In this document: positions 6,004 to 45,118 of the stretch, piece by piece
Position numbering within the stretch: position 1 is the stretch's first letter
Layout: every line of letters starts with the position of its first letter
Assembly: GCA_947588945.1 (NCBI GenBank)
Contig: CANPZY010000002.1
Span: forward strand, 29,592 to 93,591
Direction of reading: 5' to 3'
Source: an uncultured Clostridia bacterium
GTDB lineage: Bacteria > Bacillota > Clostridia > TANB77 > CAG-508
DNA length: 64,000 nucleotides
The notes under the pieces: model-generated
What the model saw: only the letters and a program-made list of their open reading frames with translations
Database searches by the model: none
What the model was told of the DNA's origin: nothing
Program-made: the position numbers and the translations under genes

Positions 6004-6127
6004 CTTAATAAAAAAAGATGGAAATGAAGTATTGTAATATACTAATTTAACACTTTATAAATAATAAGATTGATATAAATAATAAATATAAAAAGTTAAT
6101 AATAAAAAATAAGGAGAGAATCAAAGG

Positions 6128-7888: not shown

Positions 7889-8096
7889 ATTAAGTAATAA
7901 ACTTAATAAAAATTTAGTATAGTCAAAATATATCATAAACCAAATAATTATACAAGTATAAAGAAAAAAATAATTAAAATTTTTTCTTTTTTTTATAAAA
8001 AATTTTCAAAAAAATTTTTAGTGATTTTATACTTATTTCAAGCATTATAGGATTTTAAAAGAAATAAATATTTTTTTATTAAGTTTATTACTTAAT
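7889..8096. promoter_or_regulatory. candidate invertible promoter switch P2: perfect 24-bp inverted repeats (7889..7912 / 8073..8096) flanking a 160-bp spacer with TTCAAA-N17-TATACT
   Basis: attaagtaataaacttaataaaaa and tttttattaagtttattacttaat are exact reverse complements; the arms are homologous to those of P1/P3/P4; the switch ends 68 bp upstream of the 8164 start codon. Confidence 0.45.
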
Positions 8097-8163
8097 AAAA
8101 ATATTATCAAATTATAGGTATATTAAGGAAATATACTTAAATATTAAGAAAAGGAGACTAAAG

Positions 8164-11428: not shown

Positions 11429-13327
11429 ATGAGCAAAATTAAATTTATAAAAAAGAATCAAGATGAAAGTGGTATTACTTTAGTTGCATTAGTAGTTACT
11501 ATCATAATTCTTTTAATATTAGCAGGAATAACACTAAATGGAGCATTAAGTGCTAATGGACTATTTATAAGGGCAAAACAGGCTGCTGAAAAATATAAGA
11601 ATGCTGAAGAAATTGAAGAAGAACAATTGAGAGAAATTGAAAAACAACTTGACAACAAGAATTCTATAAATTCAGTTATTAAAGTAAAAGGTGTCGATTT
11701 TGACAGTAATGAATCAATAGGTAACTGGAAATTTAGTATATGTAAAGATAAAGAATGTCTTCAACCATTAGGAATCGATATTAAAGTTGGAGATAGTGGT
11801 GAAGCTGATTGTTCATCTCTTATAAAAGAAGCTGGTACCTATTATGTTGGTGTTACAGAACCTCCTGAATATAAAGATTTACCATTCGAATTATTTGAGT
11901 TTAACGTTGCAGATATAGAAGAAGAGCAAGATCTTGTTATTAAATTTAAAGGAGAAAGTTTGTCTGGAACAGGCCCATATCAAGGAACTTTCAATGGCTC
12001 AGATTCACCTGCCGAAAATACAGAATTTGATAAGAATGTTTCTTTACAAATCAGTTTTGGTGATTATGTTGAAATAAATCAATATAATTATTCTTCAAAT
12101 GGTAAAAAATTCTATCCTATAGATGACTCATATAGTTTAGCTCAAGAATTAAAGAATTCAAATTTTGAAATTGATTTTTATAAAATAGCTGAGTGGGATT
12201 CAGGCAAAAGTGAAGTTGTTTTAGATAATAATTTTAAAGACTTAAATAATGTTGATACATCTGATTTAGATACTGGTTCTACAATAGATCCTATTCTAAC
12301 AACAAGAATTAAAAATATAATAATAAAAAATAAATTGAAACCGACTGTTTCATATCAATATAGTGGTGAAAATATGTTACAATTAGAAAATGACACACAA
12401 CTAAAGAAGAAAGATTTCTACTTAATAGTACCACATGCTTCAAATAGTGAATTCGGAAAGGCATATACTAAATATTATGAAGTAGATTTTATACCTGCAA
12501 TTATTTCGTTTGTATATGCAAATGAAAATGGAGATAGTTTATATGATGTGTCTCTCGAAATAGATGCTGTAAATGCAAATAATATATTCTCTGATATTAA
12601 GATAGTTAATAACATAACAAATACTCCAGAAGGATCTTTTAAGACACAAGATTTTATATATGAAATTACTGCTGAACTTAATGGAGAGCATATGTATGAT
12701 GATATTATAGCAACTGAATGTGAAAATGAAGGAGAAAATACTTATTCAGCTGACAATTTGCCAGTTGGTTTAGAATATAGAATTTTCCCTTTATATTATG
12801 GAAATCAATGTTATCTTACTTCTGCAGATGAAGTAACAAGTGTAGTAATGAATGAAGAAGAAAACAATGTAGAATTCAATTTTGAATATTCTAATAATGG
12901 TAATAAAGATATATCTATACTTGAATATGAAGTTAAATATAACGATTATTACGAACAATGGGAAATTGAGTCACAAAATAGAAATCTTATAAATGATAAA
13001 ATTAATATAATTGATAATGGAGATGATTCAGAGAAAAATTCATTAAAAAGCATAGAAATAAAAAATACTGATTCAACTGATAAATATATCCGTTTTAAAA
13101 TCTTATCTTCACTAAATTTAGTATATTATTGTTCTGAGGAGGATAAATGGGTAAATAGTGATGAATTCTGGTATTATTCAAGCCAAGTTTCATCAAATGG
13201 CACAACTGGAAACTTACCTTTTGATATTTCTTTATCGGACTACGATGGACAACCATGTACTTATAATATAGTAATTATAGTAGAGTCAACAAATGCAGAT
13301 GATGAAGGAAATGCAAATTGGGAGTGA
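11429..13327 (+). CDS. secreted pilin-like protein P3 (632 aa)
   Basis: N-terminus ...DESGITLVALVVTIIILLILAGITLNGALSANGLFIRAKQAAEKYK is homologous to the P1/P2/P4 leader module; the C-terminal region is unrelated. Confidence 0.65.
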   Translation: MSKIKFIKKNQDESGITLVALVVTIIILLILAGITLNGALSANGLFIRAKQAAEKYKNAEEIEEEQLREIEKQLDNKNSINSVIKVKGVDFDSNESIGNWKFSICKDKECLQPLGIDIKVGDSGEADCSSLIKEAGTYYVGVTEPPEYKDLPFELFEFNVADIEEEQDLVIKFKGESLSGTGPYQGTFNGSDSPAENTEFDKNVSLQISFGDYVEINQYNYSSNGKKFYPIDDSYSLAQELKNSNFEIDFYKIAEWDSGKSEVVLDNNFKDLNNVDTSDLDTGSTIDPILTTRIKNIIIKNKLKPTVSYQYSGENMLQLENDTQLKKKDFYLIVPHASNSEFGKAYTKYYEVDFIPAIISFVYANENGDSLYDVSLEIDAVNANNIFSDIKIVNNITNTPEGSFKTQDFIYEITAELNGEHMYDDIIATECENEGENTYSADNLPVGLEYRIFPLYYGNQCYLTSADEVTSVVMNEEENNVEFNFEYSNNGNKDISILEYEVKYNDYYEQWEIESQNRNLINDKINIIDNGDDSEKNSLKSIEIKNTDSTDKYIRFKILSSLNLVYYCSEEDKWVNSDEFWYYSSQVSSNGTTGNLPFDISLSDYDGQPCTYNIVIIVESTNADDEGNANWE

Positions 13328-26784: not shown

Positions 26785-26911
26785 TTTGTAGATATGCAAC
26801 AATTAATAATTACAATAAATTAAGTATAGAAATAAAATTTATAATGATATTGATTTATAAATTTTAATTATAAAATAAAATCATTAGAAAAATTATTTTT
26901 ATTTAATTAAT

Positions 26912-27086
26912 TTAAAAGATTAATAAAAAATAAATATATAATATATATAGCATAATAAAGTCAATTATAGAATAAAAAGAAATAAAAAAATATTACAAAA
27001 TTGTAAAGAAATTTAATTATAAACTCTTGCAAAATCATTGATATAAATGAATTGCAAGAGTTTATAATTTTTTATTAATCTTTTAA
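26912..27086. promoter_or_regulatory. candidate invertible promoter switch P4: 19-bp inverted repeats (26912..26930 / 27068..27086), 137-bp spacer with a perfect 12-bp palindrome overlapping TTGATA-N18-TATAAT
   Basis: Arms ttaaaagattaataaaaaa / ttttttattaatcttttaa; the spacer contains aaactcttgcaa-N18-ttgcaagagttt. Confidence 0.4.
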
Positions 27087-27209
27087 CTTAATAAAACATA
27101 TAGAAGTAAAGTCTTATAAAGTATTAACTTAATACTTTAAAAATAATAAAATTAATATAAATAATAAATATAAAAAAGCAAATAATAAAAAAGAAGGAGA
27201 AAGCGAAAG

Positions 27210-28394
27210 ATGAGAAAAGTAAATTATAAGGAAAAAGGAATCACATTAATAGCATTAGTAGTAACAATCATAATATTACTAATATTAGCAGGAGTAACAC
27301 TAACAACAGCATTGAGTCAAAATGGATTATTTCAAAGGGCAAAGATAGCAGGAGAAAAATATAAAGAATCAGAAGAAGATGAGACAGAAAAATTAAGGGA
27401 AGTAGAAAAAGAGATAGATAAAATAATAAATGGAGAAACTCCACCAGACCTACCAAATCCTCCAACGCCACCATCAGGCGGAATAGGAAGTAGTGACATA
27501 GCAGGAAATTTAAAAGAATATCAAGGAAAATATGTAGACATAGGTGTGGATATAAATGGAAATGAAAGTACAGCGGATGATTGGGAATTATTTTATGCAA
27601 CAGATGATAGAATATTTTTAATAGCAGCAGATTGTGTGCCAGTAACCAAACTAGGAGAGTGGAAGGTGATAGGAGAGAACGCAACAAATACTAATGGTTT
27701 CCAACAAGATTCTAGCAATACATATGATGTTTACTGGCCGAGTGGTCCTACGGCATTCTTAACTTTGCCAACAATAGACAACTTTTTGAAGACAGTAATG
27801 CATGAAGAATTTGATTTGTATCTAGTTAAGAAAAAATATAGTGGGATGGCGGTATCACAATTATTAAATACAAACGTATGGGATGAAATAAAAAATGAAG
27901 CAGATAAGGTGCATCCAGATTGTGTAGACTTTGCAATCGGAGGACCAACATTAGAGATGTGGTGTGCAGCATGGAATGAGGCAGTAGGAACAGATGATGC
28001 TACATTTAAACAAATACAACCAGACGGTTCTGGTGAAAATGGATATTGTGTAGGATGTACTGCAACGGGTAAGACTGAACAAAATAGTTTATATATGGAT
28101 GGAAATACGAGTGGACTAGAAAGTAATTTAACAACATTAGGAAATGATTATAAAACATTTTTCCCACACGTTGGCAGTGCTAAGTTGGGTGGAAGTTTGG
28201 GATATTGGTTGGCTTCGCCTTCCTCTGGCCACCTCGTTATGTCCTTGATGAGTGTCCGCTATGACGGCCGCGTGACCTACGCCGACTATAACGTCATCGG
28301 CTTTGGGGTTCGTCCGGTAGTTTCTCTACGATCTGGAGTCCAAATAGTAGAGAGGGCAGAACCGAAGAACATATACGACTTGGCGACTGAGTAA
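27210..28394 (+). CDS. secreted pilin-like protein P4 with a C-terminal DUF1566/C-type-lectin-fold domain that carries a DGR variable repeat
   Basis: Leader MRKVNYKEKGITLIALVVTIIILLILAGV, Pro-rich linker PPDLPNPPTPPSGG, then a C-terminus ...GYWLASPSSGHLVMSLMSVRYDGRVTYADYNVIGFGVRPVVSL whose DNA (28207..28325) matches the AAC-rich template repeat at 28824..28939 apart from substitutions at template adenines. Confidence 0.75.
   Translation: MRKVNYKEKGITLIALVVTIIILLILAGVTLTTALSQNGLFQRAKIAGEKYKESEEDETEKLREVEKEIDKIINGETPPDLPNPPTPPSGGIGSSDIAGNLKEYQGKYVDIGVDINGNESTADDWELFYATDDRIFLIAADCVPVTKLGEWKVIGENATNTNGFQQDSSNTYDVYWPSGPTAFLTLPTIDNFLKTVMHEEFDLYLVKKKYSGMAVSQLLNTNVWDEIKNEADKVHPDCVDFAIGGPTLEMWCAAWNEAVGTDDATFKQIQPDGSGENGYCVGCTATGKTEQNSLYMDGNTSGLESNLTTLGNDYKTFFPHVGSAKLGGSLGYWLASPSSGHLVMSLMSVRYDGRVTYADYNVIGFGVRPVVSLRSGVQIVERAEPKNIYDLATE
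28207..28325 (+). repeat. DGR variable repeat (VR) at the 3' end of P4
   Basis: A 17-nt identical 5' anchor (ggttggcttcgccttcc) and a shared 3' end (gggggttcg.ccggtag.ttct). In an 81-nt cleanly aligned stretch, about 16 of 19 mismatches fall where the TR has A (AAC versus GGC/CGC/GAC/TAC/GCC/GTC/ATC). Confidence 0.7.
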
Positions 28395-28454
28395 TTGGGA
28401 TAACGTTGATTGCATTCTGATAGGCCTCGTGTCCAACCGCGCTCCGATGTATAA

Positions 28455-28739
28455 AGCAATTTTATAGATAAAAAAGAAATAGAACTAAAAAATAGAATAA
28501 GAACAAATACTTATAATGTTTTAGAAATTGCATATGAAGCAAATATATTAGAAGATGTAGAATTAAAGAAACAATTAATTTGTAAAATAATAGCTAAAAT
28601 AAAAATAGTAGATTTCTTATTAAGTTTAAGCTATGATAAAAAATTAATAACTCAAAAAAAGTATATTAAATTAGGAGAAAGATTAGACGATATTGCTAAA
28701 TATGCAAATGGATGGTTAAAATCTTTCAAAAATGGATGA
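28455..28739 (+). pseudogene. avd: 5'-truncated accessory variability determinant (Avd, four-helix-bundle protein); no start codon
   Basis: Open frame ...NRIRTNTYNVLEIAYEANILEDVELKKQLICKIIAKIKIVDFLLSLSYDKKLITQKKYIKLGERLDDIAKYANGWLKSFKNG* matches the C-terminal helices of the Avd/TIGR02436 family; there is no Met and the N-terminal helix is missing; it abuts GC-rich sequence following the VR. Confidence 0.55.
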
Positions 28740-28823
28740 TATTTTTGAATAGTATTTTATGGGGCATGGTTGTATGGACTCGTTTGAGTTGCGTTAATTT
28801 TTGATTGCGCGTGTGATTTAGTT

Positions 28824-28939
28824 GGTTGGCTTCGCCTTCCGCTAACAACTCTAACAACTTGATGAATGTCAACTATAACGGCAACGTGAACAACAACGAC
28901 TGTAACAACAACAACTTGGGGGTTCGCCCGGTAGATTCT
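28824..28939 (+). repeat. DGR template repeat (TR), AAC-codon rich
   Basis: gctaacaactctaacaacttgatgaatgtcaactataacggcaacgtgaacaacaacgactgtaacaacaacaacttgggggttcgcccggtagattct contains 17 AAC codons and is collinear with the VR. Confidence 0.7.
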
Positions 28940-29227
28940 GAAAAATTTTGGTTGTGTAGACCATTTGTTGCACAAGAGAAGCTTCAGTTCAGAAACAAAC
29001 CGTTGTCCTTTAGTACAGATTTAAAATCGCTGTGCTATAAATAAAAATAGATAAATATGTTTGTTAGTAGGTATTTACCGAAGGGGAGCATTATTTTAGC
29101 ACTATTTTATCTAGTAATCAGTTTAGATTGCTAGTTTTTTATTTGCTTTTTATTTTATTGTTACTTAAATCTTAATTCTTCTAAATGTTTGTAACATATC
29201 ATACTGCTAACAAGACTATTAATAGGC

Positions 29228-29803
29228 TCAATACCGAGAATAATATAAGTATCTTTTCTTCTTTAATCTTCTGTTTACGGTTCTATATTTTGCATATCTA
29301 CCACGACTATTTCTACCAACAAAAATAAAATTATTTGTATTTTTAAAAATCCTTGTTTTTCTATTTAATTTTAATCCATCTTTTTCTAAAAATATTTTTA
29401 ATTGTTCTAAGCAATATTTTAAGTATGATTTAGATTGATGAAAAAGTAAGAAATCATCTTGATATCTGACATAATACTTTATTTTTAGTTCTTCTTTTAT
29501 AAAATGATCCATATCATTTAAGTAAAATATAGCTAAAACTTGGCTTGTCATATTACCGATACTAAGGCCTTCATCATCACTATCAATTATATTAAATACT
29601 ATATTTAGTGCATCTTTGTCTTTTATTCTAGTTTTTAACTTCTTTTTTAAAATATCATGGTCAATACTTGCAAAGAATTTACTTATATCTGCTTTTAAAA
29701 TATAATAATCTTTATATTTTATTTTACATTTTGGTAAAAAGATGGAGATAAGAAAATGGAGAGAATTTATATAAACAGAGAATGTTGTATAGCCTACACT
29801 GTA
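29228..29803 (-). pseudogene. DGR-type reverse transcriptase, 5'-truncated (fingers motifs 1-2 missing), opposite strand to the TR
   Basis: Minus-strand open frame ...YILKADISKFFASIDHDILKKKLKTRIKDKDALNIVFNIIDSDDEGLSIGNMTSQVLAIFYLNDMDHFIKEELKIKYYVRYQDDFLLFHQS...LKLNRKTRIFKNTNNFIFVG shows RT motifs 3/A, B, C (YxDD as RYQDDF) and the thumb. A stop lies 5' of the KADISKFF region and no RT-like sequence is found further upstream in any frame. Confidence 0.75.
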
Positions 29804-29989
29804 TTAGCATTACATGAAATTTTTTGTAGTTCAAAAAAAAGAAAAAACACTAAAAGATGTTATATCTGAAATTAGAGTCATGTTTGAATTATATACTGAT
29901 GAAAATGAACTAATGAAATTAGCAGAAGATATATTAAAAAAAGAAGGAAAAATAAAGTAATAATAGATAGAGAGTGTGAAAAAATTGGA

Positions 29990-30160
29990 ATGACAATAGA
30001 AGAATGTGCTGCATATTTGGGAGTGAGTAAACAATTGGTTGCAGAACTTGTAAAGTTAGATGATTTTCCTTGTATAAAATTTAAAAGGCGAATTCTAATA
30101 AATAAGCTTGGACTAAATGAATGGATGAATAATAATATTGGAAAATTTCTTGATTATTAA
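29990..30160 (+). CDS. excisionase/AlpA-family helix-turn-helix protein (56 aa)
   Basis: MTIEECAAYLGVSKQLVAELVKLDDFPCIKFKRRILINKLGLNEWMNN is an Xis-type HTH. Confidence 0.55.
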   Translation: MTIEECAAYLGVSKQLVAELVKLDDFPCIKFKRRILINKLGLNEWMNNNIGKFLDY

Positions 30161-30253
30161 AAAAATTTTTTCTCAAATTGTTTTAGTAAAATTCGATTTA
30201 TATAATTATTATATATTCCACAAGTCACAGTTTTACTAAAACGTTCTAAAGAG

Positions 30254-30695
30254 GTGATTTTAGTGAATAAAGAAGATGGTGACATAAAAATTATAAATAC
30301 GAAATCAGGTGATAAGAAAAGAAGAAATAAAGGTGAAGGAACAATTAGAAAAAAAGGTAATACTTATGAAGGCAGAGTTACAGTAAAAATACAAGAAAAA
30401 TCAAAGCAAATTTCTATATGTAATCGTGATAAAAGAATTCTTATAAAAAATAACTTAGAACCATATATTATGAAAGAAAACAAAATTAATAATCTAGAAG
30501 ATTTAATAGGTAAAAATGTATTTTTAACAAGTAATCCTAGGTCATGCTAGTATAGAAATGACAGAAAGATATACGCATTTAGTAGATGATTTAGATATAG
30601 AAGAAATGGAGAAATTACAAAACTTATATGACAAAAAATTGAAGACATTTTATAATGAAAAGGAACTTTGTGAAATATGTGGAGTTGTAGCATAA
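30254..30695 (+). pseudogene. tyrosine integrase remnant: N-terminal arm-binding domain joined directly to the extreme C-terminus (internal deletion/frameshift)
   Basis: The N-terminal frame GEGTIRKKGNTYEGRVTV is an Int_Tn916/AP2-like arm-binding motif. A different frame from ~30540 encodes LGHASIEMTERYTHLVDD..., the catalytic-Tyr C-terminal motif of tyrosine recombinases. The whole catalytic core in between is absent. Confidence 0.6.
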
Positions 30696-30988
30696 AATAA
30701 AGGGAAGATAAAGTGAAGAATAAAATTTTAAAAATAGAAGAAAGAGAATCGTTAAAAAGAAGCCAAAATAATAATATGATGTGTATACTTTGTGGAGATT
30801 TTGGTATATTAGATAAGCTAATATTAAAGTAAAATATTTGAAAAGGAGAGATGTCTTTTAAATAGATATTTCTCTTTTTTTGAATCTTAATTTGACAGAA
30901 TAAAAATAAATTTTTATAATTAAACTATATTAATTTAGGTTAAGGAGAAAGGGATTAATCAATTAAATAGATTAATATTTCTATATAA

Positions 30989-31897
30989 TTGATTGTACGA
31001 AAAAATATGCTAGAAAAATGTAATGTATGTCCAAGAAATTGTAAAGTTAATAGATTAAAAGGAGAAATAGGCTTTTGCAAATGTGATGATAAAATAAAAT
31101 TAGCACTAGTTTCTATACATAAGTTTGAAGAACCTTGCATTAGTGGAAAAAATGGTTCTGGAACAATTTTTTTTAGCAATTGTAATTTAAGATGTATATA
31201 TTGTCAAAACTATGAAATAAGTCAAGAAGGGGTTGGAAAAGAAGTATCTATCCAAAGATTAGCGGAGATTTTTATTGAGCAACAAAATAGAAATGTCAAT
31301 AATATAAATCTAGTAACGCCAACAATGTATATTTATCAAATAATAGAGGCTATAAAAATTGCAAAAGAAAATGGATTAAAAATTCCTATTATATACAATT
31401 CAAATGGATATGAAAATATAGAAACGATTAAGGCTTTAGATGGATACATTGATGTATATTTGCCAGACTTAAAATATTTTTATGATGAAATAGCAATAAA
31501 ATATTCAAGTGCACCAAATTATTTTGATATAGCAACTAAAGCAATACAAGAAATGTATAGACAAGTTGGAAAAGTAGAACTTGACCAAAATGGTATTATA
31601 AAAAAAGGAGTGATAATAAGACATTTGATCCTTCCAAACCATATACAAAATTCAAAAAATATTTTAAAATGGATAAAAGATGATATGCCAAATGGTGTAT
31701 TTGTAAGTATAATGGCTCAATATTTTCCAACATATAAAGCAAAAGAAGATAATTTTTTAAACAGAAAAGTTTCAAGAAAAGAATATAATGAGATACAAAA
31801 TTATATTTATAAAATTGGATTAGAAAATGGATATATACAGGATTTAGAAGATTGCGAAGAAGGATATGTACCAAATTTTAATTTAGAAAATGTATAG
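30989..31897 (+). CDS. radical SAM domain protein (PflX/activating-enzyme-like)
   Basis: CNVCPRNC...GFC N-terminal Cys motif plus the radical SAM motif SNCNLRCIYCQN. Confidence 0.7.
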   Translation: MIVRKNMLEKCNVCPRNCKVNRLKGEIGFCKCDDKIKLALVSIHKFEEPCISGKNGSGTIFFSNCNLRCIYCQNYEISQEGVGKEVSIQRLAEIFIEQQNRNVNNINLVTPTMYIYQIIEAIKIAKENGLKIPIIYNSNGYENIETIKALDGYIDVYLPDLKYFYDEIAIKYSSAPNYFDIATKAIQEMYRQVGKVELDQNGIIKKGVIIRHLILPNHIQNSKNILKWIKDDMPNGVFVSIMAQYFPTYKAKEDNFLNRKVSRKEYNEIQNYIYKIGLENGYIQDLEDCEEGYVPNFNLENV

Positions 31898-32083
31898 AAG
31901 AAATAAAATCGTATAAAATATTTTTAACAATATAAAAAAATAGTGAAAATATGCAATATTGTGCAATAAAAAATAATGTAATAAAAATGTAATAAAAAAA
32001 TAAGCAAATTATATTGATAAAAAAAAATTAATGTAGTATATTAAAGATATATATTACTGGAAAAAACAAAGGAGGAACAAGAT

Positions 32084-32323
32084 ATGGAAGAAAATGAATC
32101 AAAAGAATATACAAAAGTTCCAGCGAAGGTTGGTATGTGGTCAAGTTTTAAGAGCTATTGGTTACAACCTATAGTTGTAGAGTTAACACCTTATCAAAAG
32201 AAAATATTTAAAGAAGTAAGTGACTTTTGGAATCAAGAAGTTTACTATGATAAAGGATTTCATTTAAGACCAAGACAAGATTTTGCACAACCAGCTGAAC
32301 CAGAAGTAAATGTAATGTTATAA
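32084..32323 (+). CDS. hypothetical protein (79 aa)
   Basis: Strong RBS AAGGAGG; no recognisable motif. Confidence 0.3.
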   Translation: MEENESKEYTKVPAKVGMWSSFKSYWLQPIVVELTPYQKKIFKEVSDFWNQEVYYDKGFHLRPRQDFAQPAEPEVNVML

Positions 32324-32332
32324 ATATATTAA

Positions 32333-33592
<1,260 letters not shown>

Positions 33593-34800: not shown

Positions 34801-35757
34801 ATGGCAACATTAAATCCATTAGAGAAAAAGGCACGTTCATCTTTTATAAAAGGATTATTAATTTCAGGACTTATAGGAGTAATAATAATAGCATTATTGG
34901 TATTATGGATATTTAAATTAAATGGACAAGAGAAAGAAAGGATAGCAGCCCAAAAAACAGTAGTAGTCTTAAAGGCAGAAGTAAAATCAGGAGAAGAAAT
35001 AACTTCTGATATGTTATCAACTCAACTAGCAAATGCAGAGGTAGCAACATCTGGAGCTATAACAATGGGACAATTCAGCGAATTATCTGAAATTACAGAT
35101 GAAGCAGGAAATTTAATTCCAGTTAAAGTTTTAGCAAAAATTGATATTCCAGCAAAAAGTATATTAACTGCAGATATGATTTCAACTGAAGAAGAGGTTG
35201 TTACAGATGACTTAAGAGAGCAAGAATATAATATGATAGTGCCAATTACAAACCTAGAAAGTGGAGATACAATAGATATAAGGCTTAGATTACCTAGTGG
35301 AGAAGATTATATAGTTATTTCAAAGAAGAAAGTAACACTAACTGATTTAGGAGGAGTGTATTCAACAGAAACATTACTACTAAATGTTACAGAAGAAGAA
35401 ATCTTAACAATGAGTGCAGCAATAGTTGACGCATATCAAATATCGGGAAGTAAATTATATGCAACTAAATATACTGATCCTGGACTTCAAGGAAAAGCAT
35501 CTTCGACTTATGTACCATCACAAGCAACAGTAAGGTTAGTAGATACAGATCCTAATATACTTTCAACTGCAAGAAATGAATTAATTAATAGATATAATAA
35601 TACTTATTCACAATATAGACAGGGTGTAAATGATGCTTTGGGCGCAATTGATGAATCAATTAAATCATCTGGAATACAATCAAATACTGAGTCAGAAATT
35701 GCAACACAAGAAGCAGAAAGAAAAACGTATCTTGAATCAGTTTATGGGGTAGAATAA
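34801..35757 (+). CDS. CpaB/RcpC-like (SAF-domain) pilus assembly protein, tentative
   Basis: Single N-terminal TM, then a beta-rich region with a VVLKAEVKSGEEITSDML segment resembling the SAF domain of CpaB; heads the Tad-like locus. Confidence 0.4.
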   Translation: MATLNPLEKKARSSFIKGLLISGLIGVIIIALLVLWIFKLNGQEKERIAAQKTVVVLKAEVKSGEEITSDMLSTQLANAEVATSGAITMGQFSELSEITDEAGNLIPVKVLAKIDIPAKSILTADMISTEEEVVTDDLREQEYNMIVPITNLESGDTIDIRLRLPSGEDYIVISKKKVTLTDLGGVYSTETLLLNVTEEEILTMSAAIVDAYQISGSKLYATKYTDPGLQGKASSTYVPSQATVRLVDTDPNILSTARNELINRYNNTYSQYRQGVNDALGAIDESIKSSGIQSNTESEIATQEAERKTYLESVYGVE

Positions 35758-35786
35758 TATTATAAATATAGAAAGGATAGATAAAA

Positions 35787-36470
35787 TTGGAGCAAATAGG
35801 ATTTATTGGAACTTATGATAAAAAAGACTTACTTCTTAACATTGCTAGAGTATTAATGAATTTTAATAAAAAAGTTTTAATAGTTGATGCAACAACTACG
35901 CAAAGATTAAGATATGTTGTTCCAAGAATTGAAAATGCACAAGGAAACACTTATATAAGTGAATATATAGAGATTGATGTAGCATTGGGATTTATGAATT
36001 ATAATGGGATAATGCAATATTTAGGGCATGGATTAAACTATGACATAATCTTAGTTGACACAGATAATATCCAAACCTTCAATTCATTTATGCTACCTAA
36101 TTCTGCAAAGAACTTTTTTGTAACATCTTATGACGAATATGAATTACAAAGAGGATTAGAAGTTTTTAGATTCCTACAACAACAGATGGAAATATATAAA
36201 GTTATATATTCAGCAAATATTAACAACAAAGAAGATGATTATCTAAATCATTTAGTTGAAGGAACTAATGTTACATGGAAAAAAGAGAAAGTTGAATTTG
36301 CAGACACAATTAATGATAGAAAGGCTACGTTAGAAAACCAATTAACCAAAGACATTATATTAAAAAATTATACATCAACTTATAAAGACAGTTTAGAATA
36401 TTTAATTTCATTAATGGTTGGTGAATACATCAATCAATCAGACATAAGAAGAATGATAAAAAAAATGTAG
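35787..36470 (+). CDS. degenerate ParA/MinD-fold protein (CpaE/TadZ-like), TTG start
   Basis: GFIGTYDKKDLLLNIARVL...LIVDATT: P-loop-like fold without a canonical Walker A. Confidence 0.35.
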   Translation: MEQIGFIGTYDKKDLLLNIARVLMNFNKKVLIVDATTTQRLRYVVPRIENAQGNTYISEYIEIDVALGFMNYNGIMQYLGHGLNYDIILVDTDNIQTFNSFMLPNSAKNFFVTSYDEYELQRGLEVFRFLQQQMEIYKVIYSANINNKEDDYLNHLVEGTNVTWKKEKVEFADTINDRKATLENQLTKDIILKNYTSTYKDSLEYLISLMVGEYINQSDIRRMIKKM

Positions 36471-36488
36471 AAAGGACTTAATTAAAAA

Positions 36489-37334
36489 ATGTCAATTATA
36501 ACATTTGTAAATAAAGACATGAAAGAGAGTGGACAAACACTTTCAGTTGCTGCAATTGCAACACTCATGGCTATAGAACATAATTATAGAATACTAGTTA
36601 TTTCTACAGATTTTAATGATAAAACAATGGAAGAATGTTATTTTAATAGCACAGGTGGAAAATTTAGAAATCCTTATTCAAAGTCACTTAATGCAGATAT
36701 TGCAAATGGACTAGAAGGGTTAATAAGAATGTTCGCAAGTAATAGGGCGGATAAAGAAGTCATTAGAAGCTATACAAGGCCTATTTTAAAAGATAGATTA
36801 GATATTTTGCAACCACCAAAAACTACAGATTTTAAGGAATATTTAAACATTTCAACATATTTTTCACAAATAGCAGATGTAGCAAATACAGCATATGACA
36901 TGGTCTTAGTAGATTTATCAAATAAAGTTCCTGAAGAAAATGCTAGAAAACTTATGGATATTTCTTCGCTAGTAGTTGTAGGACTTAACCAAAATATGAA
37001 ATCTATGATAAATTTTGAACTTCTAAAAAAAGAAGATGAATTTTATAGAAGAACCAATGTATTAATAATTATTGGAAAATATAATCTACATTCTAAATAT
37101 ACTGCAAAAAATATAGGAAGATTCTTAAAAGAAAAAAACGTTCCTATTGTAGTACCATATAGCATACTTTTTGCAGATAATTGCTCAGATGGAAAAATTT
37201 TAGATTACTTTTTATCATTACAGACTTTAGGAAGTGGGAATACTAAAAATTTATATTTTTGTTCACAGGTTAGAGAAGCTGTTGAAAAAATAGATTATTT
37301 AAGACAAGCATATGAATTTGGACTAAATAAATAA
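36489..37334 (+). CDS. degenerate ParA/MinD-fold protein (CpaE/TadZ-like)
   Basis: ITFVNKDMKESGQTLSVAAIATLMA...ILVISTD: same fold, non-canonical P-loop. Confidence 0.35.
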   Translation: MSIITFVNKDMKESGQTLSVAAIATLMAIEHNYRILVISTDFNDKTMEECYFNSTGGKFRNPYSKSLNADIANGLEGLIRMFASNRADKEVIRSYTRPILKDRLDILQPPKTTDFKEYLNISTYFSQIADVANTAYDMVLVDLSNKVPEENARKLMDISSLVVVGLNQNMKSMINFELLKKEDEFYRRTNVLIIIGKYNLHSKYTAKNIGRFLKEKNVPIVVPYSILFADNCSDGKILDYFLSLQTLGSGNTKNLYFCSQVREAVEKIDYLRQAYEFGLNK

Positions 37335-37390
37335 TAATACTTAAGATAAATAAAAAAACAAACAGAGGGAGAAAGGAGCATTACGAAATT

Positions 37391-39302
37391 ATGTTAGTCA
37401 ACCTTATAATTATTGCAGTAATTTTATTTGCAATTTATGCATTAATAAAAAGAAACATAAAAAAGACTCAAGATGCAGAAGTAGAGGAAAATGTTGTTGT
37501 TGATGATAAAACATATACTTTAGAAATGATGATGAATTTCATTAAAAAGAGACTAGATGAAATTACTAAAGTAAACCTTTACGATTTAGGTCTTTCAGAA
37601 GAAGAGTTAAAAAGAAGAAAGAATAAAAAATATGAGTTAAAAAAGGCCTTAAAAGGTTGTACATATGGAGACGTTAATGATAAAAAATATGTAAAAGAGC
37701 TTATATTTGATTTACTTATTAAAGAATATGGAGTTGATGAAACTAATGTATCAAAAGCAATACCATTTGATGTTCCATCTCTTTTAACTCCACAAGATAA
37801 ATTTGATATAATAATTTTTATGTATAAAAAAGACTTTGGATATGAAGCTCTAACCCAACTTATAAAAAAATATCACTTAGCAGAACTTAAATATACATCA
37901 GGAGATGCAAAACCATCATATGTTATTACTCCAGAAGAAATAAGTGATATTTATGAAAAAGAAAACTTTAATTTAACATTTGAAGATAAATTAATGGTAG
38001 TTGTACAAAGAATATACCAAAGATATAAGGGATATAGTTCAATAGATGAAGTAAGAGATATGAATATAGATGGTGTATCTGGTGGTGTATCTGGATTACC
38101 AGAAAGCTTCTTAAGCCAGGTTGCACAAACAGACAGTAGTTACTTAAACCAAGTTATGGATCATAAAGTTCCTCGTGCTTGTGATAGTATATGGATATTC
38201 TTCCAAGGTAAATCAATACGTTTAGCATTTCTATCATTTGGAACAGAAGCAGAATTAAAAAGAGTTTGCCAGAATATTTACAAATATAATAACCCAGGAC
38301 AATTATCAGACACAAATGGTTATAAAATCAATGAAATGAAAGATGGTTCTCGTGTCGTAGTTGTAAGACCATCATTCTCAGAAACATGGGCATTCTTCGT
38401 AAGAAAGTTCGACGTAAAGAGAGCAACACTAGAACAGTTAATTACAATACCAGGAAAAGAAGATACAATAGATTTATTAAAATACTTAGTAAAAGGAGCA
38501 AGAATTATATCACTTACTGGTGAGCAGGGTTGTGGTAAAACAACAATGCTTATGGGTATGATAGAAAATATATATGAAACAATGAACATTCGTGTTCAGG
38601 AAACTGCATTCGAGCTTCACTTAAGAAAAATATATCCAACTAGAAATATACTTACATTTAGAGAAACAGATACAATTTCAGGACAACAAGGTCTTGATGT
38701 TCAAAAGAAAACCGATGGTTCTGTAAACATAATTCGGAGAGGTTGCAACAGACCCCGTAGCATCTTGGATGATTCAAGCTGCCCAGGTTGCATCTAAATT
38801 TACATTATTTACTCACCACGCTAAGACATTTCCAAACTTAGTTACAGCATTAAGAAACTCAATGCTTAGAAATGGTGACTTCACTAATGAAATTGTTGCA
38901 GCAGAACAGGTTGTACAAGTTCTTAACTTTGATATACATTTAGTTAAAGACTTTAAAGGAAACAGATATATTGAAAGAATTACAGAATGTATCCCACTAG
39001 AAGATGTAAATGACTATACATTTGACCATCAAAAAGAGAAAACATTAGAAGGAAAATTTGAAAAATTTGTTGATAATACAACTAGATATTATACTAAGGA
39101 AACAAACAAAGAATTATTTAAATATGTAAATATTCTTGAATATCAAGATGGTGCCTATGTTATTACAAATAAAATATCAGACCATAACTTACAAGAAATG
39201 TTACTTAATATGGATGATACTGATGCTACTGCATTTAAAGAGTTTGTTAGTAGAAAATGGGGCGTTAGATTTAATGATATAGGACAAGTTGTAAAGAACT
39301 AA
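37391..39302 (+). pseudogene. membrane-anchored VirB11/CpaF-family secretion ATPase, +1 frameshift (extra C at 38735)
   Basis: N-terminal TM; Walker A LTGEQGCGKTTMLMGM; ...TDGSVNII then frame loss. The +1 frame continues GEVATDPVASWMIQAAQVASKFTLFTHHAKT, which parallels CpaF [31 protein letters not shown]. Removing C38735 (attCgga) restores one frame. Confidence 0.75.
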
Positions 39303-39345
39303 AAAATATAAAAATAATTAAAGATAAGGAGGTGGAGCTTTAAAA

Positions 39346-41419
39346 GTGAGCACAAATGTATTAATAATTTTTGTTCGGAATAGCTGCAATATTATTATTT
39401 GGAATAGTATTCTTGTACCTTGGATTAAAGAAAAGAATGAGAAATGAAGACGTAATGAGAATAGAAAAACTTAGAAAAGGTACAGAAGAGAAAAGCTTTT
39501 CTAGTGATGTATTCTATCAAAAATTATATATAAAATTTTTAAAGACTCCATTTATAAAAAGATATTTATTAAAAATAAGGCGTAGACTTGAAATAAATAA
39601 CTTAGACGATGAATTTATTACAAGACAAGATAGTGCTAAAATTGTATTTAAAGCATTACTTATTATCATTCCATTAACTATACTAGTAATTGTTATTACA
39701 AATAAAAACTTATTATTAATGTCTATAATACTTGTATTTGAATTATTTATAGTAGACTCATTTTCTGATGGAATGGTAGATAAATTAGATAATAACCTAT
39801 TAATACAACAAATTGACTTTTTTGCATCAATGAGACATGCTTATCATGAAACAAATATGGTTGGAGAAGCAATTTATTCAACTGCTCAAGATACAGAAAA
39901 TGTTGAAATGTCAAGACAAGCAGAAAAAATTTATGAAATATTAAATTCACAAGACCCAGAAACAGAACTTGAAAAATATTATGATATTGCACCAAATAAC
40001 TATATAAAAGAATTTGCTGGAATTTCATATTTAACTCAAGAGTTTGGTGATAGAAGAGTTGATGGAGCTTCACTTTATTTAAAAAACTTAGAAAATATTA
40101 CGCAAGAAATGCAGATTGAAATATTAAAAAGGGATAAATTAAATTATACATTTCAAAGTTTATCAGTAATATCAATTATTCCAATGCTTTTATTAGAGCC
40201 ACTTAAGAGTTGGGCTATATCAAATTTCTCATTTACAAAAAACTTTTATGAGGGCAAACAAGGTCTAATAGTACAAATACTTATTATGCTTGCAACCTTT
40301 ATTTGTTATATTTTAATAAGAAAATTAAAAGATAATGGTTCAGTAAAAAAGGTACAAGATGAACAAAATCCTTGGCAAGCAAAATTATATGAAAAACCAT
40401 TTGTGAAAAAGTTTGTAGATCAATTTATTCCTAAAGAAGGAACAAAAGAGCGTAGAAAATTAAGAAATTTACTTAAAGATTCAGCATCTAAAACAAAAAT
40501 TGAATGGCTTTATATTAATAGAATTTTAATTACTATTGCAGTATTTTTAGGGTCTCTGATATTCTTTTTTGCATTACATAAAATTCAAATTAATTATATT
40601 TATACTCAGCCAACAACTGATTATGATCTGATAGGTGAGATGTCAGCTAAAGAAACTGTTACAGCTATGGCGAAAACAAAAATGCATAATGCAATACTTG
40701 ACAAAATGAAGGGAAATAGGCATGCAACTTTAGATGATGTTATAAAAACAATGAAAAAATCAAAAGAGTATAAAGATGCATCAGAAGAAGATATTGAAAA
40801 AGAGGCACCTACTATTTTAGAAAAATTGCAAACAATTAATTCAGAATATTTGCAATGGTTTGAAGTATTAATGGCAACTTTATTTTCACTTATTGGATAT
40901 GCATCTCCAATATTACTATTGAAATTCCAAGTAAGAATGAGACAGATGGATATGGAAGATGAAGTTATGCAATTCCAGACTATTATCATGATGCTAATGA
41001 GACTAGAGAGAGTTGACGTTGAGATGATTCTAGAATGGCTTGGAAGATATGCCGATATATTTAGAGAACCAATAAATAAATGTTTAAATAACTATGAAAG
41101 TGGTGCATGGGAAGCATTAGAAGAAATGAAAGAAGATGTATCATATCAAGAGTTTATAAGAATAATAGAAAGCTTGCAAACAGCAGTAGAAAAAGTTCCA
41201 ATAAAAGAAGCATTTGATGAACTTGATGCTGATAGAGATTATTATAGAGACAAGAGAAAAGAATCAAATGAAAGATTAATTAAGAGAAAAGGTATGATAG
41301 GAAAAGCAATTGGATTTACACCTATGGTATTAGTATTTGTTGGATATCTAGTTGTTCCACTTGTATTAATAGGAATGACGAGTATGTCATCATCATTCGA
41401 TTCAATGTCTAATCTATAA
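39346..41419 (+). pseudogene. large polytopic membrane protein (fused TadB/TadC, GspF-like, tentative), +1 frameshift 30 nt after a GTG start (extra C at 39376)
   Basis: RBS AAGGAGGTG sits 8 nt before GTG 39346; that frame stops after 33 codons, while the 682-aa ORF continues in the +1 frame from gttCgga; deleting C39376 joins VSTNVLIIFV-GIAAILLFGIV... Confidence 0.5.
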
Positions 41420-41478
41420 TAATATTAAATAAATCAATTCTATAAAAAATATTGATTGTATTGTGAAAGGAAACAATA

Positions 41479-42024
41479 ATGGAAAATGCATCTAAGGCAA
41501 TAATAATGGCTGGAGGAATACTAATTGCTCTACTTGTTGTATCTACACTAATAATTGGCTGGAATAGAATAACAGATTATCAAAGAGTAGAGGAAGAAAG
41601 TGAAACATTAGAGCAATTAGCTAAATTTAATAAAGAATTTGAATCATATAATAAAGGTGTTGTTAGAGGCTATGAACTTATTTCTTTATTTAATTTAGCA
41701 CAAGATACTAATGAAAGATATAGTGAAGATGAAGGATTTAAAAATTTAGAAGTATTTGTGAAATTTTTAAAAAATACTACAGTTGTTATCAATAGTGGAG
41801 ATGAAAAAGCACAAAAAAAGCTTACAGCAGGTTATATAGATTTATCAGTTTTTATAAAAGACTATTATAATTATTCTATTGAACATGGACAAACAGATTA
41901 TTCAAAAATATTTAAAGAATCATATTTTCAATGTGATAGAACTGAATATGATGGAGAAGTTGAAGGAAAAGGATCAGGAAGAATCCAAAAGCTTTACTTC
42001 ACTCAAATAGAGAGAATAAATTAA
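41479..42024 (+). CDS. putative (pseudo)pilin-like secreted protein, paralog 1 (leader MENASKAIIMAGGILI)
   Basis: Conserved N-terminal MENASKA(L/I)I(I/M)AG plus a hydrophobic helix shared by four adjacent genes. Confidence 0.45.
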   Translation: MENASKAIIMAGGILIALLVVSTLIIGWNRITDYQRVEEESETLEQLAKFNKEFESYNKGVVRGYELISLFNLAQDTNERYSEDEGFKNLEVFVKFLKNTTVVINSGDEKAQKKLTAGYIDLSVFIKDYYNYSIEHGQTDYSKIFKESYFQCDRTEYDGEVEGKGSGRIQKLYFTQIERIN

Positions 42025-42078
42025 ACTTTCTAGAAAATATAAAATTTACCAAGTAAAATAAAAATTGGAGGAAGATAA

Positions 42079-42648
42079 ATGGAAAATGCCTCAAAAGCTC
42101 TGATTATTGCAGGGGAAGTATTAATAGGCATAATGGTACTAACTTTAATGATATATATTTTTAGTGCATTTGGAAATTTTTCTTCTAATATGCATGAAAG
42201 TATGGTAAAATCACAAATAGCACAATTTAATGAAAACTTTTTTACTTATGAAAATAGAACTAATATTACAGCAACAGAAATTGTAACAATAATTAATTTT
42301 GCAAAGCAATCAAACGATTCTAGAGAATTAACAAGAAATGAAAGAACTTCAGAATACTATGTAAGAGTATTTATAGATGATGTAGATGTATTTAATAATA
42401 CAAAATACATATCTAATGATTATGACTATAATGAAGGATTAACAGAAGTTTTAAATAATTTTATAAAAAATAATAATACGAGCTACTTTAGTTGTAATGC
42501 TTCCCTTGAAAAAAAAGGAGATAATTTGCAAGTAAATTACGATAAATATACAAATGATATTGTTGTACAAGAAAAAACAGGTTTAGTTAATGAAATACAC
42601 TTTCATAAAATAGATGAAAATATTATCTCTATTCCAAAAAGTTTTTAA
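42079..42648 (+). CDS. putative (pseudo)pilin-like protein, paralog 2 (MENASKALIIAGEVLI)
   Basis: Same leader. Confidence 0.45.
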   Translation: MENASKALIIAGEVLIGIMVLTLMIYIFSAFGNFSSNMHESMVKSQIAQFNENFFTYENRTNITATEIVTIINFAKQSNDSRELTRNERTSEYYVRVFIDDVDVFNNTKYISNDYDYNEGLTEVLNNFIKNNNTSYFSCNASLEKKGDNLQVNYDKYTNDIVVQEKTGLVNEIHFHKIDENIISIPKSF

Positions 42649-42699
42649 ATTAAATTATTGCATTTAAAAATTTTTAATGATATAATTAAAGGGATTTTT

Positions 42700-43125
42700 A
42701 TGAAGAAAATATCAATAATTATTTTATGTATAATAGCAATTATTTCAGGCGTAGCTTATGGATTTGCCAATTATAAAGCTAAACAAGGTGAAAGAAATAT
42801 AAATAATTCAATATATGCTAATTTATATGAAAAAGATATAAATGGAAATGATTTAGCAACAATAATAAATAAAACACTTGATAATAATGAAAAAAATAAT
42901 ATAGAAAAAGATGAAAATGGTATATATAAAGATAACAACAAAAATTCAATAAAAATAGAAATAAAATTTAAACAAAGTGATAATATAATATCAATAGAAA
43001 AAATTTATAATAGTAAAATTTCTAGGTTTATTGAACTTTATGGACAAGTTATGTTTAAATGTACAAAAATAGAATATCATACAAAAACTAAATTAGTGAA
43101 ATACTTATATTTTGAAGAAATTTAA
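42700..43125 (+). CDS. small secreted protein with signal peptide (MKKISIIILCIIAIISGVAYG)
   Basis: Start chosen at the internal ATG with a signal-peptide-like N-terminus. Confidence 0.35.
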   Translation: MKKISIIILCIIAIISGVAYGFANYKAKQGERNINNSIYANLYEKDINGNDLATIINKTLDNNEKNNIEKDENGIYKDNNKNSIKIEIKFKQSDNIISIEKIYNSKISRFIELYGQVMFKCTKIEYHTKTKLVKYLYFEEI

Positions 43126-43217
43126 ATTTAGATATTAAGTTTTGTCTTACTAAAGACGAATTATAAAATGATAAAATATCATATAATTTTTAATAATCAA
43201 AGGAGGAAATTTTTAAT

Positions 43218-43691
43218 ATGGAAAATGCGTCAAAAGCTTTAATTATAGCAGGAGCAATTTTAATTTCAATTTTACTTATAGGATTAGGAGTAGGTGTTTA
43301 TCAAATGGCAGCAGGAACTACAAAAAGTGCTAACCTAGATTCAAAAGCAGCACAAGCACAAAATAGTCAATTTGAAGATTTGTTTGGAGCAAGAAAATCA
43401 GCTGCAGATGTAAAAAATCTTATGACATTAGTTAGAAATAATAATATTACTGGAAATACAAAAGATGAGCAAGTAGAAATTCATGTTCTTTACAATGGTA
43501 CAGAGAGTACTCCTTCAGGGGTATCAAAATTGGTAAAGGCAGGTAAAACATATTGGGTTAATGTAGAAAATGATAATGCTTGGGATGGAAAAGGTGACGA
43601 TGAATCAATTACTAAAGATTCAGAAGCATATTATGACACAGGATATCTTAGAGTAATAAGTATTTATGAAGGAGAACATGAATCGGAGTAA
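43218..43691 (+). CDS. putative (pseudo)pilin-like protein, paralog 3 (MENASKALIIAGAILI)
   Basis: Same leader; RBS AGGAGG. Confidence 0.45.
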   Translation: MENASKALIIAGAILISILLIGLGVGVYQMAAGTTKSANLDSKAAQAQNSQFEDLFGARKSAADVKNLMTLVRNNNITGNTKDEQVEIHVLYNGTESTPSGVSKLVKAGKTYWVNVENDNAWDGKGDDESITKDSEAYYDTGYLRVISIYEGEHESE

Positions 43692-43719
43692 TAATAATGC
43701 TTTTTAGAGGAGCTTAATT

Positions 43720-44544
43720 ATGGAGAATGCAACAGATGCGTTAAAGATGGCGGCAGCAATATTAATTTTCATTGGTGCACTTTCATTAGCATTGATTGGT
43801 TTTACAAGAGCAACGCAAACTGCAGGAAGTGTACTATCTAAGTCAAAAGTAGAATATTATAATACTGAAAATATTAGAGTATCAGAGAATAGAATAGTTG
43901 GTATTGAAACGATTATACCAACTCTATATTCGTATTTTAAAGAAGGTTATACAATAGTTTTTTATAGAGGGTCTGTTGATGAAAATAATGATTTAGTATC
44001 AAATATATCACCACTTACGCTTTATTATTCAGAAGCACTTCCATCAAGATTAGTATTATCAACACTTAGGAATGAAGGCGATGTCTCATATAGAGCAACT
44101 CAGGATGGAAAGAATATTTCAAGAGCAATATATGGAATAGATGCAAATGACGAAGATACAAGACAAGAGCCATGGCTACATGACGAAATACACGCTAAAT
44201 ATTTTATACAATCATTAATAAATAATACACCAGAAATGTCAAAATATGATATGTCTAGAAAAAAATCTGTAGCTATAAATAAACAAGAAGACAATAAATT
44301 AACATTAAATTTTGATTTTAATGGAGGATTAATAAATAGATTAGGATCAAGCATTTCAAATGCCAAAGATGCTATGTTTATTGAAAGAATTGGTACTTAT
44401 AATCAAGTAATATACGATGGAGATCAAACGGCATCAGTTGATAGTTCAATTATTGAATTTTCAAATAATGAAGTTATGCAAAATAATGAGGGAACACAAA
44501 AGAGAGTTATCCAATATATTTATATAGGAAATAAAACAAGATAG
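43720..44544 (+). CDS. putative (pseudo)pilin-like protein, paralog 4 (MENATDALKMAAAILI)
   Basis: Related leader. Confidence 0.4.
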   Translation: MENATDALKMAAAILIFIGALSLALIGFTRATQTAGSVLSKSKVEYYNTENIRVSENRIVGIETIIPTLYSYFKEGYTIVFYRGSVDENNDLVSNISPLTLYYSEALPSRLVLSTLRNEGDVSYRATQDGKNISRAIYGIDANDEDTRQEPWLHDEIHAKYFIQSLINNTPEMSKYDMSRKKSVAINKQEDNKLTLNFDFNGGLINRLGSSISNAKDAMFIERIGTYNQVIYDGDQTASVDSSIIEFSNNEVMQNNEGTQKRVIQYIYIGNKTR

Positions 44545-44596
44545 TTTTAAAAAAGATAACAAAAAATATTTATAGATGTAAAAATAGGAGGTTCTT

Positions 44597-45118
44597 ATGA
44601 ATGATTCAGTTATGACTGTTTTAGCAATATTTTTAGCAGCAATATTAATGTTTATATTTCCTTTAATGTCTACTGCTGATAGAAGTGATGATATTTCACA
44701 ACAAATAGTACAAGCTGAAACAACAGAATTTGTTGATAAAATTAGGTCAACAGGAAAAATAACAAATGATAATTATGAAGCTTATAGTCAAGCAGTAACA
44801 GCAACAGGAAATTCATTTGAAATAGAAATGCAAGCTTCAATTCTAGATGAAAATTCTAATAAAAAGACAACACAAGCATCTGCACAAAAAGTTGGAGAAA
44901 ATTATTCTTATAGTGAATATACTTCTCAAATCTTAGATAAAATTGAAAATGAAGGTCAATATAAATTAAAAGCAGGAGACTTTGTATCTGTTTCTGTAAA
45001 AAATACAAACAAAACAATTTCACAGATACTTAAAAACTTTATGTATAGAGTTACAGGAAATGATAATTATGTAATTGCAGCAAGACATTTTGGAACAGTT
45101 AATGTTACAGCTAATTAG
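44597..45118 (+). CDS. N-terminally hydrophobic small protein (MNDSVMTVLAIFLAAILMFIFPL)
   Basis: Fifth small leader-bearing protein in the locus; RBS AGGAGG. Confidence 0.4.
   Translation: MNDSVMTVLAIFLAAILMFIFPLMSTADRSDDISQQIVQAETTEFVDKIRSTGKITNDNYEAYSQAVTATGNSFEIEMQASILDENSNKKTTQASAQKVGENYSYSEYTSQILDKIENEGQYKLKAGDFVSVSVKNTNKTISQILKNFMYRVTGNDNYVIAARHFGTVNVTAN

Follow-up and report, generated by a model that had tools for sequence, protein, structure and literature searches.

A probably inactive diversity-generating retroelement and its stalked, lectin-fold target protein in an uncultured rabbit-gut Clostridia bacterium

Among the diversity-generating retroelements (DGRs) described so far, those closest to the element considered here are the Avd-type DGRs with a MutS-like (MSL) accessory gene, which form Architecture D of Wu et al. 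2018 (PMC5758913). The same study describes DGRs in which the template repeat (TR) and the reverse transcriptase (RT) lie on different strands. Among known targets, DUF6273 is the domain that bears the variable region (VR) in Faecalibacterium prophages (PMC11792537). Bacteroides DGRs diversify the tip adhesins of type V pili (bioRxiv 10.1101/2024.11.15.621889), and 'GspG-type pilin' domains with a VR are rare and have been listed in passing (PMC11661182). Here we describe a DGR and its target gene in 64 kb of DNA from an uncultured rabbit-gut Clostridia bacterium. This whole stretch is called the window, and statements of absence refer to those 64 kb. We put the probability at roughly 0.8 that the element is a decayed copy, dead in cis, whose VR is frozen. 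The coordinates of its parts are collected in Table 1.

Table 1. Parts of the DGR locus, its target gene and the adjoining remnants, in window coordinates
Feature	Position	Strand	Description
Target gene	27210..28394	+	394 aa; N-terminal hydrophobic helix, long helical stalk, Pro-rich linker, globular domain
VR	28206-28322	+	117 nt, codes for aa 333-371 of the target; one codon longer than the TR
Candidate IMH	28305..28325	+	3' end of the VR, GGGGTTCGTCCGGTAGTTTCT; 2 positions differ from the TR counterpart
Degenerate GC-rich inverted repeat	28412..28442	+	~90 nt 3' of the VR, past the stop codon
avd pseudogene	28455..28739	+	Equals residues 24-115 of the sister Avd; sits between VR and TR
Deletion junction	28460..28486	+	TTTTATAGAT joined to AAAAAAGAAATAG, break at 28469/28470 (alignment with L026)
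TR	28823-28936	+	114 nt, 35 adenines, 14 AAC codons; intergenic
Candidate IMH*	28919..28939	+	3' end of the TR, GGGGTTCGCCCGGTAGATTCT
Structured RNA 'spacer'	28937..29140	+	~200 nt directly 3' of the TR; terminator-like hairpin and T-run at 29111-29140
RT pseudogene	29231..29728	-	Residues 129-294 of a 294-aa DGR-type RT; YILKADISKFF, IGNMTSQ, YVRYQDDF
Apparent integrative-element remnants	29990..30700	+	Adjoin the RT breakpoint

Comparison with the Avd-type DGRs that carry an MSL gene (PMC5758913) reveals several shared features. These are A-to-N differences between TR and VR at AAC codons, repeat ends that resemble the initiation of mutagenic homing site (IMH) and its TR counterpart (IMH*), a gene for the Avd four-helix bundle, and an RT that carries the motif IGxxxSQ. 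In the sister loci L026 and L039, a gene with a MutS_I domain that separates target from avd is also shared. In contrast, the copy in the window has lost the MSL gene, the start of avd and 44% of the RT gene from its 5' side, and the likeness is one of gene content rather than of placement in an RT tree. With the Faecalibacterium prophage targets (PMC11792537) the locus shares a VR at the C-terminal end of a DUF6273-related domain, the ...WLASP...GVRP... frame and a gut Firmicutes host. Those targets are phage tail or decoration proteins, whereas the target in the window is the product of a chromosomal gene, has a membrane helix and a stalk, and is encoded among housekeeping genes. The surroundings of this DGR copy are chromosomal and include addA, gap, an S4-domain gene and a radical-SAM gene. 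Relatives of the RT occur in IMG/VR only at <=40% identity, which gives no sign of a phage-borne lineage. The solved DGR variable proteins TvpA of Treponema denticola (PDB 2Y3C) and TaqVP (PDB 5VF4) are only 9-10% identical to the target. TvpA is a lipoprotein, whereas the target begins with a helix that resembles a class III signal.

The repeat pair of the window is a real DGR template and variable region. The TR, an intergenic segment 617 nt downstream, is collinear with the 3' end of the target open reading frame (ORF). The anchors shared by the two repeats occur at two sites only in the 64 kb, where 0.00-0.01 chance matches are expected. An earlier note on this DNA, made from the letters without database searches, had placed the two repeats at these sites, and its placement is borne out to within 1-3 nt. 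The repeats are identical over 18-19 nt at their 5' ends. In the ungapped block of 78 nt at their 3' side, 19 mismatches are found, affecting 16 of 27 TR adenines as opposed to 3 of 51 TR positions that are not adenine (Fisher one-sided p = 4.2e-7). The computed alignment returns the same count of 16 in 19 that the earlier note had reached by eye, and the adenine-specific DGR signature that it claimed is confirmed in this clean block. The note had also reported a poor alignment with a 3-nt indel after the 5' anchor. This 5' block does require a 3-nt gap, the best placement of which yields 6 A and 4 non-A mismatches, such that the whole pair has 22 A versus 7 non-A mismatches together with the 3-nt indel. 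One of the 16 adenine mismatches (GAT in the TR versus GTT in the VR, at the 3' end) is fixed in every TR and VR of the family and is best taken as a difference between IMH* and IMH, not as a product of mutagenesis.

Inspection of the TR shows a reading of ...AAC AAC TCT AAC AAC TTG ATG AAT GTC AAC TAT AAC GGC AAC GTG AAC AAC AAC GAC TGT AAC AAC AAC AAC..., and no other AAC-rich stretch is present in the window. In an alignment of homologues, the hypervariable block of the VR sits between the conserved motifs GYWLASPS and GVRPVV. At least one non-A difference of the window pair seems to have arisen later, within the TR, where the TR has TGT and both the VR and the TR of L020 have TAT. Over 114 nt the window TR differs from that of L020 at 12 positions and from that of L026 at 10, and a similar TR is present in L025. 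The GC content of the 3' segment of the target ORF is 0.46-0.55, compared with a window background of ~0.25.

The genes that accompany this repeat pair are truncated. The avd frame aligns with positions 24-107 of the 107 positions of the bAvd profile and with positions 28-104 of 104 of the NCBI Avd model NF033474, in agreement with the claim of a 5'-truncated avd between VR and TR. It contains no ATG, GTG or TTG, and tblastn with the L026 Avd indicates that its first ~23 residues are gone. Relative to L026, the deletion spans ~640 nt and comprises the MutS_I accessory gene plus the first ~23-26 codons of avd. Neither Avd residues 1-23 nor the MutS-like gene were found anywhere in the 64 kb by tblastn with sister-locus queries.

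The RT that the earlier note had seen just downstream is real as far as its sequence and motifs go, but it is a 5'-truncated fragment on the minus strand and not a working gene. The fragment covers positions 61-202 of the 205 positions of RVT_1. Its C-terminus is complete and its first ~128 residues are gone, that is to say the fingers and motifs 1-2, or the 5' 44% of the gene. The only in-frame start is the Met of the motif 4 sequence IGNMTSQ, which leaves an ORF of 107 aa (29228-29551). Its closest database proteins are 75-98% identical and, when complete, 294-326 aa long. The fragment corresponds to residues 144-309 of P0244 at 97% identity, and the full-length RTs P0243 and P0244 are 98% identical to the RT ORF of the window. 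The breakpoint lies at ~29733 and is adjoined by what look like the remnants of an integrative element. These consist of an excisionase-type helix-turn-helix ORF of 56 aa (29990-30160, +; HTH_17, TIGR01764), an ORF of 98 aa (30254-30550, +) with no match to a hidden Markov model (HMM), and a motif ...LGHASIEMTERYTHL that begins at ~30531 in another frame than the 98-aa ORF. The motif likewise has no HMM match, and we take it to be the C-terminal Tyr motif of a tyrosine recombinase. A split of the RT by insertion, with its 5' part beyond the excisionase and integrase remnants, was considered and rejected, as tblastn with a full-length RT finds the missing N-terminal part nowhere in the 64 kb. 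Overall, the window holds the TR/VR pair and the target fold of a DGR and has neither an intact RT nor an intact Avd. From the loss of the MutS-like gene, the avd start and the RT N-terminus, we infer that the element cannot diversify the VR from its own genes.

Related loci of the lineage, which is known from uncultured Clostridia of the rabbit gut, provide the layout from which this copy departs. In L026-L029, a target, a MutS_I-domain gene, avd, TR and spacer converge on an RT on the opposite strand. The same convergent layout is observed with a full-length RT in L020-L022 and L025, and in L039 of the wider lineage (79% RT identity; NCBI, ENA and Logan data) the series of target, MutS_I, bAvd and TR faces the RT. 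An RT on the opposite strand is thus the native arrangement in this lineage. An inversion as the source of the minus-strand RT was rejected on the same grounds, with the full-length-RT relatives L020, L025 and L039 all convergent. Next to a full-length RT, the repeat pairs show 19 A versus 1 non-A mismatches with no length difference in L020, and 25 A versus 3 non-A mismatches with no length difference within the repeat in L025 (target P0006).

Truncation of the RT is not confined to the window. Forms of 182 and 186 aa are found in L024 and L026-L029, in other chromosomal contexts, and among these loci and the window the 5'-truncated copies (>90% identical) have at least two different breakpoints. 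The differing breakpoints and contexts indicate that decay of the cassette is recurrent. The RT fragment of L026-L029 (6001-6549) adjoins rimP-nusA-infB, and a 4-nt insertion truncates the Avd of L026. In L020, a deletion fuses the MutS-like and avd frames into one ORF of 134 aa (6079-6483, -), the target is split into two ORFs of 441 and 140 aa (6677-8589, -), and three samples (L020, L021 and L022) have one and the same VR. Looking across the target family, tblastn with the RT and Avd fragments detects no RT or Avd within 6 kb at 17 species-representative loci with target homologues, such that an adjacent DGR is the exception in the family.

The non-coding parts of the cassette differ in how well they are preserved. 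All VRs of the family carry GTAGTT where all TRs carry GTAGAT, and by analogy with the DGR literature (PMC5758913) GGGGTTCGTCCGGTAGTTTCT is a candidate IMH. Downstream of VRs in the family lies an inverted repeat with the consensus GCGTG CT GCTGG GCCTCGYGT CCAGC CACGC, in which GCCTCGYGT is the loop. Its pairing is kept with compensatory changes in L004, L005, L008, L020 and L026, and it is missing from the paralogues L003, L007 and L009. In the window, both stems are broken by several substitutions (GCATT..GATAG / CCAAC..CGCGC, compared by eye). The repeat may represent the hairpin by which the DGR recognizes its target. The spacer RNA is conserved in L008, L020, L025, L026 and L039, where two-sided changes preserve 9 of the 43 predicted pairs. 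Its full-length match to Rfam RT-14 is weak (27 bits versus a gathering score of 48.1) and is treated as a hint only. Filing the spacer under RT-14 was rejected, as the match is sub-threshold and was not recovered when related loci were searched together. At L008 (1212-1545), the inverted repeat and a spacer-like RNA with a terminator come after a target paralogue, avd, TR and RT are missing, and ftsZ comes next; this locus is another deletion derivative of the cassette.

The target protein continues from its stalk through a Pro-rich linker (~aa 74-92) into a lectin/FGE-fold domain (aa ~93-394), and the VR lies at the C-terminal end of the protein, within that domain. The assignment to the C-type-lectin/FGE fold is supported. 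A DUF1566/CLec-type C-terminal domain had been proposed for the target, and of this proposal the lectin-type fold stands while the DUF1566 label does not, with no match of the DUF1566 or FGE-sulfatase HMMs at E <= 0.1. The target family is large (>4,000 matches), and the homologues come from metagenome-assembled genomes of uncultured Clostridia from rabbit gut. When 64 family members were aligned, 29 were found to match DUF6273 (PF19789; best E 8e-6) and 30 to match N_methyl weakly. The target of the window itself has no DUF6273 match at E <= 0.1, and PF19789 is a precomputed annotation of several database hits. Upstream of the target gene, the intergenic stretch 26800-27200 is extremely AT-rich (8-15% GC) and contains a perfect 18-nt inverted repeat (27015-27032 / 27052-27069).

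The N-terminal leader was also inspected, as the earlier note had described it as pilin-like. The leader reads KEKG/ITLIALVVTIIILLILAG, with the slash between positions -1 and +1. Gly occupies -1, a basic residue occupies -2, and Ala is found at +5 where pilins have Glu; the +5 residue is Ala in all 16 close homologues (KG/ITLIALVV). Against PF07963 (N_methyl) the target scores 18.8 bits, below the cut-off of 21.2 (E 0.0012), and NCBIfam, which would include a prepilin model, gives no match at E <= 0.1. The model of the target contains no pilin head domain, in which an alpha1 helix would pack against a beta-sheet, and the hits include no pilin. The leader is accordingly weak evidence for a pilin, and the assignment as a type IV pilin fails in each of three defining respects, namely the N_methyl/prepilin model, Glu5 and the pilin fold. 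A few minor pilins located at filament tips also lack Glu5. In view of these, the Ala at +5 makes incorporation into a filament less likely but does not decide against it.

Nor is the leader confined to this target. It is common to three other ORFs of the window, starting at 6128, 8164 and 11429, whose passenger domains differ, and targets in the wider RT lineage carry it as well, the DGR target of L039 having the same leader. The leader is a general export or anchoring module of the clade. The ORF at 6128-7606 (+) encodes 492 aa with the leader KG/ITLIALV and has a GC-enriched 3' end. Its C-terminus, ...NIYDLAGNVSEWT...GFRVAL, resembles DGR variable regions of the FGE-sulfatase/TvpA type (PF03781, E 6e-4, sub-cut-off), and a second TR for this FGE-like protein was not found in the window. 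The ORFs at 8164-9756 (+) and 11429-13327 (+) encode 530 and 632 aa, each with the leader, a helical stalk and a passenger without a Pfam match.

Proteins of other pilus systems offer further points of comparison. Modular type IV pilins such as Streptococcus sanguinis PilB (PMC8179133) appear to resemble the target in broad plan, with a hydrophobic segment resembling a class III signal, followed by a grafted binding module. Modular pilins keep a complete pilin module (alpha1 helix on a beta-sheet) and usually Glu5, whereas the target has Ala, a disordered Pro-rich linker and no predicted head. With type V pilus adhesins and GspG-type pilin domains the target shares the idea of a surface protein that is adhesive, associated with a pilus and diversified by a DGR. 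Type V pili and type IV filaments are, however, unrelated, and nothing here shows the target entering any filament. In the literature that could be searched, leaders of this class are not described for DGR targets of Firmicutes, an absence that is not proof of novelty.

To understand whether the VR is still changing, related sequences in other samples were compared. A second assembly (L030), found through the RT ORF, is 100% identical over 27321-33551, VR and TR included. The truncated RT recurs in three further samples at 99.5-99.7% identity, and the 90%-identity cluster of the target consists of one sequence, present on 3 contigs. When JGI metagenomes were scanned for two exact patterns, the gene-specific flank of the VR and the junction of TR and spacer, 0 matches were returned. 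The P0096 cluster, a different branch of the family with 119 members, has a VR equivalent that does not change across 13 variants (P0249-P0261), whereas its N-terminal and middle regions vary, the reverse of the variation expected from a DGR. The family thus includes other frozen VRs.

These observations are best explained by past activity followed by decay. The TR RNA would once have been reverse-transcribed with random incorporation opposite adenines, and the resulting cDNA would have replaced the VR and recoded ~15 AAC-templated codons. The recoded residues would lie on the ligand-binding face of the DUF6273-related lectin/FGE-fold domain, which would be displayed at the end of a membrane-anchored, stalked surface protein. 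The ~640-nt deletion would then have taken the MutS-like gene and the avd start, and a second break would have taken the first ~128 residues of the RT. What is left in the VR would be a frozen record of earlier mutagenic homing in which drift has since begun.

Several observations weigh against such a frozen state. Intact copies of the TR, the spacer RNA and the target ORF are present, and around the TR the window is nearly identical to L026, such that the RNA could still be used. The view is limited to 64 kb, and a second, intact DGR may provide RT and Avd in trans. DGRs regarded as functional also show non-A substitutions and 3-nt indels beside AAC repeats (Wu et al. 2018, PMC5758913), and the non-A mismatches and the 3-nt indel are accordingly suggestive of decay but not decisive. 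The invariance of the VR rests on one other assembly, whose source population may be the same or clonal, and on nothing beyond consensus sequences. Finally, sister loci with a full-length RT are defective too, the target ORF being split in L020 and avd being frameshifted within a poly-A run in L025, although some of these defects could be assembly errors at 4-5x coverage.

In an alternative reading, the cassette is defective in cis but the VR continues to be diversified in trans, by the intact RT, Avd and MutS-like set of another DGR copy in the genome and with TR RNA from this locus or from a near-identical TR. We regard this as unlikely. The lineage does occupy several chromosomal sites, and samples of the same kind contain full-length RTs that are 98% identical to the RT ORF of the window. 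Paralogous targets commonly have no DGR next to them, multi-DGR genomes and remote targets are documented (PMC5758913), and an IMH-like end is retained here along with the intact TR, spacer RNA and target ORF. No second RT, Avd or TR was found in the 64 kb, however, and the VR has 7 non-A mismatches and an indel, as opposed to 1 and 3 non-A mismatches in the sister pairs next to full-length RTs. In addition, the conserved inverted repeat 3' of the VR is broken, and just one other assembly covers the VR, with an identical sequence. Static VRs are, moreover, normal in this family, as in the branch whose 13 variants all have the same VR equivalent.

A complete, self-sufficient DGR that is now diversifying a type-IV-pilin-like adhesin, which is how the earlier note read the locus, is very improbable. 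An RT that lacks 128 of 294 residues and a usable start contradicts it, as does an Avd without its first helix or a start codon, even though the VR/TR pair is adenine-biased and avd-like and RT-like sequences are present. The adhesin part of that reading is met by the sub-threshold pilin HMM score, the missing Glu5 and the lack of a pilin fold. It is scarcely credible that the TR is a 3' end left behind by a duplicated paralogue and its likeness to the VR ordinary paralogy: many paralogues do have similar 3' ends, and L008 keeps spacer-like sequence without a TR, but the differences are directional (TR A versus any VR base, the reverse just once), the 14 AAC codons of the TR form the sole such stretch in the window, sister TRs are much closer to each other than sister VRs are (10-12 differences from the window TR over 114 nt), and the neighbours of the TR are avd, a structured RNA that is conserved, and an RT of DGR type.

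Approximately 6 kb downstream of the locus, the region 34801-45118 (+) contains 12 co-directional genes with almost no Pfam matches. Weak matches were obtained to SAF (CpaB-like, E 8e-4) and to the T2SSE ATPase (E 9e-4); the ATPase appears split, with 37391-38797 overlapping 38769-39302. Four small proteins begin with MENASKA(L/I)I.AG or MENATDAL, leaders that are unlike that of the target, and a membrane protein of 682 aa is also encoded. The ORFs 35787-36470 and 36489-37334 were guessed by eye to be ParA/TadZ-like, without Pfam support. No prepilin peptidase was identified at this possible Tad-like cluster, which may be a divergent Tad or type IV filament locus. One can conceive of the KG/ITLIALV proteins as substrates with class III signals that form Glu5-less minor or tip subunits on a type IV filament, perhaps one made by this divergent cluster, with a lectin-fold tip diversified by the MSL-type DGR lineage. 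We consider this a long shot. Were it true, it would represent the first DGR-diversified type IV filament adhesin, though the copy in the window is frozen.

Most probably, the element in the window is a fossil, and the system that it represents is of a known kind. It adds little to DGR biology, as the mechanism, the fold class, the accessory genes and the opposite-strand RT are already documented. It does provide a well-bounded example of DGR decay, in which the VR keeps its adenine signature after the RT, Avd and MutS-like genes have been cut away, and automated DGR callers keyed on a TR/VR pair and an RVT match could miscall such loci as active. For gut Clostridia, the locus points to a large family of probable surface proteins built from a putative anchor resembling a class III signal, a stalk and a DUF6273-related lectin-fold head, some members of which are DGR targets beside a full-length RT.

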